This document shows, piece by piece, positions 47,599 to 48,828 of a stretch of DNA of 64,000 bases. Location of the stretch: IMG/VR virus record IMGVR_UViG_3300037420_002497; one strand, written 5' to 3'. This DNA comes from a virus. Below the pieces are notes generated by a model. The model ran no database searches, was not told the DNA's origin, and saw nothing but the letters and a program-made list of their open reading frames with translations. Each line of letters starts with the position of its first letter. Position 1 is the first letter of the stretch. The position numbers and the translations under genes are program-made.

Positions 47599-48828
47599 AT
47601 GACCACCCATAGTTACGAAGTCATCAGCGATGCCCGCCTGCCCATCAAGGCCTGGACGCGCGGCGTGCAGGTGGAGGACGCGGCGCGCCAGCAGCTGCTC
47701 AACATCGCCAACATGCCCTTCATCCACAAGCACGTCGCAGCCATGCCGGACGTGCACTGGGGGATGGGCGCCACCGTGGGCAGCGTGATCGCCACCAAGG
47801 GCGCGATCATCCCCGCCGCCGTGGGCGTGGACATCGGCTGCGGGATGATTGCCCAGCGCACCACGCTGGTCGCCAGCGACCTGCCCGACAACCTGGGCGA
47901 GCTGCGCAGCGCGATCGAGTGCCGCATCCCACACGGTCGCACCAACAACGGCGGCCCCGGTGATCGCGGCGCCTGGGGCACCGTGCCTGAACGCATCACG
48001 ACGCACCTGCAGCCGCTGATGTCCGAGCTGTGCGGGATCATGGACAAGCACCAAGCGATCCGGCAAGCCGCCCAGCGCGCGGCCCACCACGCCGGGACGC
48101 TTGGCACGGGCAACCACTTCGTCGAGGTCTGCGTGGACGAGGCGCAGCGGGTGTGGGTGATGCTGCACAGCGGCTCGCGCGGCGTCGGCAACAAGATCGG
48201 CAGCTACTTCATCGAGCTGGCCAAGAAGGACATGCGGCGCTGGTTCATCAACTTGCCCGACGATGATCTGGCCTACATCCCCGAGGGCAGCGAGCTGTTC
48301 GGCGACTACTGGCGCGCGCTGAGCTGGGCGCAGCGCTTCGCCGCCGCGAACCGCGAGCTGATGATGTCGGCCGCACTGTCGGCGCTGTATGAGGCGGTGC
48401 CCAAGCCTTTCGCCTGCGACACCCAGGCCGTGAACTGCCACCACAACTATGTCAGCCGCGAGCGCCACTTCGGCGACGACGTGCTGGTGGCGCGCAAGGG
48501 CGCCGTGTCGGCCCAGGAGGGCGAGCTGGGCATCATCCCCGGCTCCATGGGCGCGCGCAGCTTCATCGTGCGCGGCAAGGGCAACCGCGAGGCCTTCTGC
48601 TCCTGCTCGCACGGCGCAGGCCGCGCCATGAGCCGCAAAGAGGCCCGCAGGCGCTTCACCCTGGAGCAGCACGAGATCGCCACGGCCGGCGTGGAGTGCC
48701 GCAAGGACGAGGACGTGCTCGACGAGACGCCGATGGCCTACAAGGACATCGAAGCGGTGATGGCCGCCCAGGCGGATCTGGTGGAGGTGGTGCACACGCT
48801 CAAGCAGGTCGTCTGCGTGAAGGGCTGA
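47599..48828 (+). CDS. rtcB: RtcB RNA ligase (3'-phosphate/5'-hydroxyl nucleic acid ligase), 409 aa
   Basis: HWGMGATVGSV, GVDIGCGM, GTLGTGNHF and CSHGAGR are hallmark RtcB motifs; AGGAGCCACCCATG start context. Confidence 0.85.
   Translation: MTTHSYEVISDARLPIKAWTRGVQVEDAARQQLLNIANMPFIHKHVAAMPDVHWGMGATVGSVIATKGAIIPAAVGVDIGCGMIAQRTTLVASDLPDNLGELRSAIECRIPHGRTNNGGPGDRGAWGTVPERITTHLQPLMSELCGIMDKHQAIRQAAQRAAHHAGTLGTGNHFVEVCVDEAQRVWVMLHSGSRGVGNKIGSYFIELAKKDMRRWFINLPDDDLAYIPEGSELFGDYWRALSWAQRFAAANRELMMSAALSALYEAVPKPFACDTQAVNCHHNYVSRERHFGDDVLVARKGAVSAQEGELGIIPGSMGARSFIVRGKGNREAFCSCSHGAGRAMSRKEARRRFTLEQHEIATAGVECRKDEDVLDETPMAYKDIEAVMAAQADLVEVVHTLKQVVCVKG

Follow-up and report, generated by a model that had tools for sequence, protein, structure and literature searches.

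A solitary RtcB-type RNA ligase gene of viral lineage on a circular element with virion and conjugation genes

The rtcB gene and its product

The subject of this analysis is an rtcB gene encoded in a 64,000-nucleotide stretch of the IMG/VR virus record IMGVR_UViG_3300037420_002497, the whole of which is referred to below as the window. The window has a G+C content of about 68% and, according to a codon-usage gene call, carries about 129 small, tightly packed genes. An earlier annotation made from the letters alone (the sequence-only reading) had picked out the gene as a phage-encoded RtcB RNA ligase, and had grouped it with genes for a MazG pyrophosphohydrolase, a dihydrofolate reductase (DHFR) and a HAD-family phosphatase into a toolkit serving anti-defence and nucleotide-pool functions. 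The gene and its ribosome-binding site are located as follows.

47599 to 48828, plus strand: RtcB RNA ligase, solitary, 409 amino acids (aa), assigned from PF01139, phrog_1075 and alignment with Escherichia coli RtcB
47588 to 47592, plus strand: Shine-Dalgarno sequence AGGAG, 6 nt before the RtcB ATG, read from the sequence

The RtcB open reading frame (ORF) is real and intact. Its product matches PF01139 with an E-value of 4.1e-131 (438.5 bits against a cutoff of 27) over the complete profile (positions 1-426 of 426) and phrog_1075, 'tRNA splicing ligase', with an E-value of 7e-149, and it is collinear from end to end with the 408-aa RtcB of E. coli, with which it shares 59.2% identity. Pairwise alignment with the E. 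coli protein showed that D78, C81, N172, H173, H190, H281/H282, H338 and R342 are conserved; the catalytic residues in E. coli numbering, with roles according to published mutagenesis and structures, are D75, C78, N167, H168, H185, H281, H337 and R341. Asp75, Cys78, His185 and His281 are the E. coli metal ligands, as are D95, C98, H203, H234 and H329 in Pyrococcus horikoshii. The motifs GVDIGCG, GTGNHF, HSGSRG and CHHN of the window protein could likewise be aligned to P. horikoshii RtcB (PDB 1uc2). H338 is located within CSCSHGAGR, a motif that is identical in E. coli RtcB and whose SHGAGR histidine (His337 in E. coli, His404 in P. horikoshii) is the GMP-accepting nucleophile that forms covalent RtcB-GMP. 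Neither an intein nor a truncation was found in the window RtcB, and the ORF downstream begins 2 nt past its stop codon. On the basis of established RtcB enzymology and the intact active site, the ORF is predicted to encode a full-length, E. coli-type 3'-phosphate/5'-OH RNA ligase in which all catalytic residues are intact, and the identity originally given to the gene therefore stands, with a full-length PF01139 match and the catalytic residues kept.

Proteins known to accompany RtcB elsewhere were sought in the vicinity. No archease (PF01951) was matched among the RtcB-flanking ORFs, even at E<=10, or in the JGI-annotated loci of the larger element to which the window belongs (described below), and E. 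coli is likewise not known to have an archease. RtcA and RtcR were absent from the JGI Pfam table for 10 kb on either side of RtcB, and the same table, over the same distance, contained no PrfH or release-factor-like gene. The score of the window protein against the NCBIfam model TIGR03073 ('release_rtcB') was 133 bits against a cutoff of 271.8, and it fell far below the cutoff of PRK09588, also from NCBIfam. The RtcB fold and ligase chemistry are thus shared with the RtcB2-PrfH systems, but the TIGR03073 score and the lack of PrfH set the protein apart, and it is not a member of that group. No homologues of Pnkp or Rnl were found in scans of the element. The protein is best described as an RtcB of the archease-independent E. 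coli type that is predicted to be catalytically competent.

Lineage of RtcB and selection upon it

Homologues with 75-83% identity to the window RtcB are numerous, the closest (83%) being encoded on a contig of 119.6 kb that is related to the present element and is hereafter called the sister element. While RtcB is 83% identical between the two, their remaining shared genes are only 37-65% identical. The dN/dS ratio of the window gene against the sister-element allele was 0.23, and RtcB is thus kept functional by purifying selection.

At least 381 stretches in IMG/VR encode RtcB relatives. For comparison, the best 80 IMG/VR loci were set against the best 80 loci from GTDB genomes, and both sets were searched for RtcA and RtcR by tblastn using E. 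coli queries taken from the annotated E. coli locus. RtcA was present in 35 and RtcR in 39 of the 80 GTDB loci, whereas neither was seen in any of the 80 viral loci, and both were also absent from the sister element. In a neighbour-joining, midpoint-rooted tree of 164 sequences, which is a simple one and whose sampling is biased toward the query, the half that includes the window RtcB contained 79 of the 81 viral sequences and a single one of the 43 sequences linked to rtcA or rtcR, while the opposite half contained the other 42 of these 43. Recent capture from a host was ruled out, as the relatives with 75-83% identity lie on viral or phage-like contigs and the chromosomal genes linked to rtcR or rtcA, at 63-68% identity, are located in the other half of the tree.

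The best named match, at 80% identity, is the RtcB of Nevskia ramosa (locus L010, 580024-593244), which is encoded without RtcA or RtcR among phage-type neighbours (DUF5131, DUF4326, P22 Y8K6 family and Gp10_C). This 'chromosomal' gene is probably a prophage copy, and it hints at a host range in high-GC Gammaproteobacteria. The consistent picture is that the window RtcB belongs to a viral lineage related to the cellular RtcB1 type and is not a fresh host capture. The sequence-only reading had raised the alternative that the gene is host-derived cargo; it was found instead in a virus-dominated lineage, apart from the genes of rtcR-rtcB-rtcA loci.

The gene run around rtcB and the MazG-like, DHFR and HAD genes

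RtcB lies in a plus-strand run of 32 ORFs (38240 to 51019) in which all intergenic gaps are at most 19 nt and most junctions are overlaps of 1 or 4 nt. The run is part of a longer plus-strand block extending from 29867 to beyond 64000 (75 ORFs up to 64000) and continuing to nikA and relaxase genes. The three genes with which RtcB had been grouped are given below.

38533 to 38934, plus strand: MazG-like all-alpha NTP pyrophosphatase, 133 aa, from PHROG families, JGI name and predicted fold
44222 to 44734, plus strand: DHFR, 170 aa, PF00186 (E=2e-46)
21099 to 21593, minus strand: stand-alone HAD phosphatase, HAD_SAK_2, from PF18143 and phrog_1818

The MazG-like gene, DHFR and RtcB were all confirmed to lie inside the one coupled run, and the DHFR assignment was upheld by its Pfam match. 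A DHFR with 55% identity to that of the window is also encoded upstream of RtcB in the sister element (locus L008). The sister-element enzyme (L008, 6465-7295) has 276 aa and so about 100 extra residues, and a 604-aa cytosine DNA methylase and a tRNA-Ser(GCU) gene are likewise found upstream of RtcB there.

The MazG label could be retained only in the looser form of a MazG-like protein. No Pfam family matched the product of 38533 to 38934 even at E<=10, but the 'pyrophosphatase' families phrog_5658 (3e-66) and phrog_3301 (6e-25) did, and its JGI product name is 'NTP pyrophosphatase (non-canonical NTP hydrolase)'. E58 and E61 (ExxE) and E82, E84 and D87 (ExExxD) are invariant across 32 homologues. 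An AF2 model was helical with a pLDDT of 93, and its top PDB matches in Foldseek were DCTPP1, HisE, MazG and DR2231, with probabilities of up to 0.98, yet with E-values of about 0.1. With the predicted fold taken into account, the MazG-like assignment may be regarded as moderately well supported.

The HAD phosphatase, in contrast to the MazG-like protein, could be assigned more sharply than before. It matches PF18143 (HAD_SAK_2) with an E-value of 6.7e-21 (75.5 bits against a cutoff of 27.5), and both FLDVDGVL (the DxDG motif I) and AILDD (the DD motif) are present. According to its Pfam description, HAD_SAK_2 is the HAD domain that occurs in RNA repair proteins of the 'Swiss Army Knife' kind, and the refinement strengthens the RNA-repair theme of the earlier annotation. 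The gene is situated 26 kb from RtcB, in an operon on the opposite strand.

It had further been stated that no thymidylate synthase is visible in the window, and none appeared in the Pfam scans or JGI tables. ThyA and ThyX were also not found in the JGI Pfam tables of the element loci L001, L002, L004, L006 and L205 or in the Pfam scans between them, a coverage in which the virion module was partly scanned and 2.5 kb of the circle lies outside the data. The suggestion that a thyA/thyX or archease partner might be located just beyond the window found no support in the JGI Pfam tables of the flanking loci.

Two further genes of these operons were noted in passing. An acyl-carrier-like PP-binding protein is encoded within the RtcB run (42164-42427, plus strand), and an SPFH/Band_7 protein is encoded in the minus-strand operon (23745-24665, minus strand).

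Neighbours of viral rtcB genes

Of the ORFs flanking RtcB in the window, neither g95 (phrog_4405) nor g97 has a counterpart next to the sister-element RtcB, and in the neighbourhood of RtcB the two elements share only DHFR and two small genes. A conserved protein partner of RtcB was ruled out, as ORF clusters within 4 kb of the gene reach at most 6 of the 80 viral loci. Homologues of the window genes were also scarce across these loci, with a MazG-like gene at one, DHFR in the sister element only and a recognisable HAD at none, and a conserved RtcB-MazG-DHFR-HAD module was ruled out by this survey. The view of a toolkit expressed together consequently does not describe a conserved module, the flanks of RtcB being different even in the sister element.

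The sole recurrent neighbour of viral RtcB is a tRNA gene. One was present within 500 bp of RtcB at 21 of the 80 viral loci as opposed to 3 of the 80 genomic loci, and at several viral loci RtcB is embedded within arrays of 18-29 tRNA genes. The nearest tRNA was tRNA-Pro(UGG) in 12 of these 21 viral loci. Among all 80 viral loci, a diverged tRNA-Pro(UGG) was located within 300 bp of RtcB in 14, or a tRNA-Pro in 15 if the tRNA-Pro(CGG) of L164 is counted, and in 6 of them it was the only tRNA within 10 kb. It is almost always encoded on the same strand as RtcB, either upstream or downstream. The loci concerned are listed here.

L096, L112, L113, L120, L126, L127, L133 and L134: tRNA-Pro near RtcB
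L136, L141, L142, L150, L158, L164 and L168: further loci with tRNA-Pro near RtcB

It was considered whether this pairing could be an artefact of attachment (att) sites. This is unlikely, as the tRNAs are full-length, strongly diverged from each other and found on both sides of RtcB; an integrase-like gene was present in only 2 of the 15 loci. A functional pairing of RtcB with tRNA-Pro(UGG) is possible, and we know of no earlier description of it. The presence of tRNA-Pro(UGG) within 300 bp in 14 of the 80 viral loci raises the possibility that a single recurring target is what RtcB of the viral lineage is specialised for.

In 5 tRNA-rich viral loci, a HAD_SAK_2 gene lies about 1.2 kb upstream of RtcB (8331-8804 in L115, and in L118, L151 and others), with genes for an RNase T-like exonuclease, a PTH2 peptidyl-tRNA hydrolase and an ADP-ribosylglycohydrolase nearby. 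HAD_SAK_2, RtcB and these three look like a small tRNA-maintenance cluster, and the adjacency of HAD_SAK_2 and RtcB at these other loci is some indication that the two families are functionally linked.

The carrier element

The exact RtcB protein was also found on a 122,796-bp JGI contig. Positions 1 to 8988 of the window correspond to the last 8,988 bases of this contig, and the window from 8862 onward corresponds to the contig from its base 1, so that the contig ends overlap by 127 nt (window 8862-8988). As a result of this overlap, the element closes into a circle with a length of about 122,669 bp. The circular junction is spanned by an intact, conserved ORF of 334 aa (phrog_4046, 3.5e-86). 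About 2.5 kb of the circle is not covered by the data. The partition genes of the element are located within the window.

60016 to 60846, plus strand: ParA, with AAA_31/CbiA matches
60885 to 61916, plus strand: ParB, with ParB_N/SoPB_HTH matches

A weak KorA match is located just upstream of parA, and a Cro/YdaS-like regulator is also encoded in the window. To the right (63100-84107; loci L002 and L205), the plus strand carries a NikA-like gene, a relaxase (PF03432) and a complete type IV secretion system (T4SS) of the MPF-T type, comprising VirB1/SLT, VirB2/TrbC, VirB3, VirB4, a VirB5-type protein, VirB6/TrbL, VirB8, VirB9/CagX, VirB10/TrbI, VirB11 and a VirD4-type coupling protein; OmpA and LPD7 genes accompany this conjugation set. 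To the left of the window (-229 to about -36000; L004, L171, L199 and L201) lies a virion and lysis module with genes for an HNH endonuclease, TerL, portal, a ClpP-type protease, an HK97-type capsid, a 1815-aa tape-measure protein and an endolysin. IMG/VR lists only this 36-kb virion part as viral.

A chimeric assembly as the cause of this combination of phage and T4SS genes is unlikely in view of a second contig of 123,000 bp from another sample, which has an identical gene order, and of the conserved ORF across the junction. Neither an integrase nor a replication initiator was identified in the element annotation, and no inverted repeat indicative of an origin of transfer (oriT) or nic site was seen around nikA or within the 522-bp gap that follows the relaxase operon. 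With the catalogued phages, the element has no DNA in common except rtcB. Among PLSDB plasmids, homologues of its portal reach at most 44% and homologues of its RtcB at most 65% identity, although RtcB genes as such are present on 301 of these plasmids. Judged by gene content, the carrier resembles either a phage-plasmid of the conjugative kind or the product of a fusion between a phage and a conjugative plasmid. The earlier designation of RtcB as phage-encoded is therefore accurate in so far as a virion module is present, but it overlooks that the same carrier has ParAB, a relaxase and a full T4SS. In surveys of phage-plasmids, conjugation genes were found to be rare or sporadic (PMC10879196; bioRxiv 2025.11.07.687105). 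That a complete virion module and a complete conjugation system share one circle with partition genes, as seen in at least two samples, is an addition made by the present analysis.

No tRNA gene and no other Rfam RNA was found in the 64-kb window. Outside it, three tRNA-like genes lie between the HNH and terminase genes.

10575-10653, 10732-10804 and 11026-11099 of L004 (about -1586 to -2110 in window coordinates), minus strand: tRNA-like genes, Rfam tRNA

They score 39-55 bits against the Rfam tRNA model, which has a threshold of 29, but their anticodon arms are abnormal: one has a 9-nt loop on an extended stem, one a 6/8-nt loop and one a UAACUAA loop with A33. In a relative with 94% identity in the portal protein, the second slot is occupied by an ordinary tRNA-Tyr(GUA) and the third by a normal tRNA-Arg(UCU) that differs only at loop positions 33 and 34. 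Since ordinary tRNAs are held in two of the slots in so close a relative, the oddities look like recent mutations.

Proposed role of RtcB and alternative explanations

The role that we favour, with slightly better than even confidence, is the repair of RNAs that host RNases cleave while the element enters a cell or is induced. RtcB would be translated from its own strong ribosome-binding site inside the long polycistronic run and would self-guanylylate at His338 using GTP and Mn2+. It would then open a 2',3'-cyclic phosphate to a 3'-phosphate and activate the latter as RNA(3')pp(5')G, upon which attack by a 5'-OH end would produce a normal phosphodiester bond. In this way, tRNAs, and possibly rRNA or mRNA, could be re-sealed after cuts by metal-independent host RNases, candidate opponents being anticodon nucleases, HEPN or toxin RNases and ribotoxins, and translation would be kept going for the element on cell entry or induction. 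This role is favoured because of the viral lineage of the gene, the purifying selection upon it, the proximity of tRNA genes to its relatives and the fact that the element has another gene of an RNA-repair family; the substrate, the timing and the counter-defence benefit are what we infer from these. The RNA-repair and counter-defence interpretation put forward in the sequence-only reading is a reasonable one. To call it a known counter-measure was an overstatement of the literature within reach, in which the reading of phage RtcB as a tRNA repair enzyme comes from comparative genomics (PMC7824862).

Several observations weigh against this role. The window is devoid of tRNA genes, and the element's three tRNA-like genes, whose anticodon loops are aberrant, are separated from RtcB by about 50 kb. 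Scans for promoters and terminators around the run gave no signal above chance, and PADLOC returned nothing meaningful for 10 large unknown ORFs that were screened for an RNase or defence gene opposing RtcB. If the HAD protein is an RNA 3'-end phosphatase, it would destroy the substrate of RtcB, and the two may therefore not cooperate. In the literature within reach, no experiment was found in which a phage RtcB had been tested for a counter-defence role. Finally, a role that benefits the host is equally conceivable given the plasmid-like lifestyle of the carrier.

This last explanation, which we consider improbable but the most serious competitor, would make RtcB a cargo gene of lysogenic conversion or plasmid carriage that is expressed during plasmid maintenance and aids the host by repairing its tRNA or rRNA after damage by colicins, ribotoxins delivered by contact-dependent inhibition (CDI) or type VI secretion (T6SS), toxin-antitoxin RNases or translation stress. 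Host stress repair is the role proposed for chromosomal RtcBA. The ParAB-bearing carrier does resemble a stably maintained replicon, and the 301 PLSDB plasmids with RtcB are in keeping with a plasmid function. E. coli-type RtcB is reportedly tied to tRNA stress repair (PMC7790460). Cyanobacterial rtcB shares its regulation with a mobile tRNA array and a neighbouring HNH gene, and translational stress induces rtcB and the array together (PMC8421152). However, the damage-sensing regulator RtcR and RtcA are absent, RtcB sits well inside a long run of small phage-type ORFs and does not form a separately regulated moron, and its lineage is overwhelmingly found on viral contigs, including large, tRNA-rich and lytic-looking ones.

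The two transfer modes suggested by the carrier could also be brought together in a single, more speculative reading. Here the element would have two ways out of the cell, as a tailed virion and through its own T4SS, the 36-kb run with RtcB, the MazG-like gene and DHFR would act as a shared entry and establishment region, and RtcB would guard translation on both routes. We regard this combination as rather unlikely in full.

Still less probable is an establishment function in conjugative transfer, in which RtcB would belong to the leading region, the 36-kb plus-strand run ending at nikA and relaxase would be transcribed from the incoming T-strand, and the protein would be made early in the recipient to counter RNA-targeting defences. 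A complete MPF-T T4SS, NikA and relaxase lie directly downstream of the run, all 75 of the 75 ORFs between 29867 and 64000 point toward nikA, and the DUF932 and LPD7 genes are typical of conjugative elements. The same orientation toward nikA has been reported for anti-defence genes of leading regions, where their enrichment spans 30 ORFs (PMC11541004), but about 17 kb and about 39 ORFs separate RtcB from nikA. Moreover, neither oriT nor the nic site could be located, phage early regions normally have long same-strand runs as well, and the relaxase of the sister element is convergent with its RtcB run, so that the arrangement is not conserved.

A role for RtcB in processing RNAs of the element itself, either by joining or remodelling the three tRNA-like transcripts or in some other programmed cleavage and ligation, is very unlikely. 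RtcB serves as the tRNA splicing ligase of archaea and metazoa, and the three tRNA-like genes do pass the Rfam threshold in spite of their abnormal anticodon arms. However, no splicing endonuclease and no bulge-helix-bulge motif was seen, the insertions are merely 1-7 nt long, the 94%-identical relative has ordinary tRNA-Tyr and tRNA-Arg genes in two of the three slots, and the distance between the tRNA-like genes and rtcB is, as noted, about 50 kb.

An action of RtcB on DNA, sealing or capping 3'-phosphate ends left by host nucleases on the incoming genome, is hardly credible: E. coli RtcB joins DNA 3'-PO4 to 5'-OH ends in vitro, a general capability of the family, and the gene does lie among nucleotide-metabolism genes, but no DNA-repair partner is nearby and the recurrent association is with tRNA genes, not with DNA-repair genes.

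Comparison with known systems

The repair logic proposed here resembles that of phage T4 Pnkp and Rnl1, in which damage done to tRNA by a host anticodon nuclease is mended by a mobile element. In that case, tRNA-Lys cleaved by PrrC is repaired by Pnkp and Rnl1, the ends left by anticodon nucleases being a 2',3'-cyclic phosphate and a 5'-OH. The difference is that RtcB seals 3'-phosphate and 5'-OH ends directly, with no healing by a kinase-phosphatase, and that the sole healing-type enzyme of the element is HAD_SAK_2, which lacks a kinase partner.

Compared with the rtcR-rtcB-rtcA locus of E. coli, the window protein is of near-equal length, has 59% identity and conserves the metal, GTP and nucleophile residues, and in neither case is an archease known. 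It differs in being encoded without RtcA and without the sigma54/CARF regulator RtcR, in its mobile carrier and in its position on a virus-dominated branch. Closer parallels are found among phages. Brevundimonas phage Kabachok also has a solitary RtcB among small hypothetical ORFs, and its rtcB has 74% nucleotide identity to the window gene over half the gene. In Mycobacterium phage Rey, RtcB (gp134) directly follows a tRNA array, and the family of the present element resembles Rey in carrying tRNA genes, which in this family lie next to the terminase. In the window no tRNA is adjacent to RtcB, and the carrier is not a plain phage but has ParAB, a relaxase and a T4SS. By these comparisons, the window RtcB belongs with the solitary phage RtcB genes already described.

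Phage RtcB has accordingly been catalogued, and read as a tRNA repair enzyme, before (PMC7824862), and the present gene is another example. What is added is clear evidence for a long-standing viral lineage of RtcB that consists of single genes without RtcA or RtcR and that is under purifying selection, and phage RtcB would thereby lend itself well to a first direct test of whether RtcB serves in counter-defence.

By gene content, the carrier resembles the phage-plasmids of the P1, N15 and SSU5 types in being a circular replicon with ParAB and a complete virion and lysis module, and the MPF-T conjugative plasmids in having a full VirB1-B11/VirD4 set, NikA and relaxase. It is unlike most phage-plasmids so far described, in which conjugation genes are rare. 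If both transfer routes work, the element could serve as a model for a replicon that balances two transfer modes and for accessory genes that serve both.

Repeat arrays, low-GC cassette and further genes

A DUF932 protein, of a family that is common on conjugative elements, is encoded at 13846-14763 on the plus strand and has 36-44% identity to copies from jumbo phages.

The 8-mer CACCAGGG is present in 42 copies in the window, against an expected 4.4 and a maximum of 10 in shuffled sequences. Thirty-two of the copies, all on the plus strand, are concentrated in two gene-poor arrays at 77-1237 and 3359-3644 (with an occurrence also at 2530). The arrays contain CAGCTG-type motifs, adjoin the region of the HNH, tRNA-like and terminase genes, and flank a cassette of lower G+C content; iterons, a centromere or a packaging site are possibilities for their function. 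The cassette between them, at 1300-3100, has about 60% G+C as compared with about 68% for the element and a deviating codon usage. It holds the following ORFs, which include a GP88-family protein (PF17338).

1302 to 1607, minus strand: cassette ORF
1639 to 2028, minus strand: cassette ORF
2159 to 3001, minus strand: cassette ORF

The cassette looks like a separately acquired insert.

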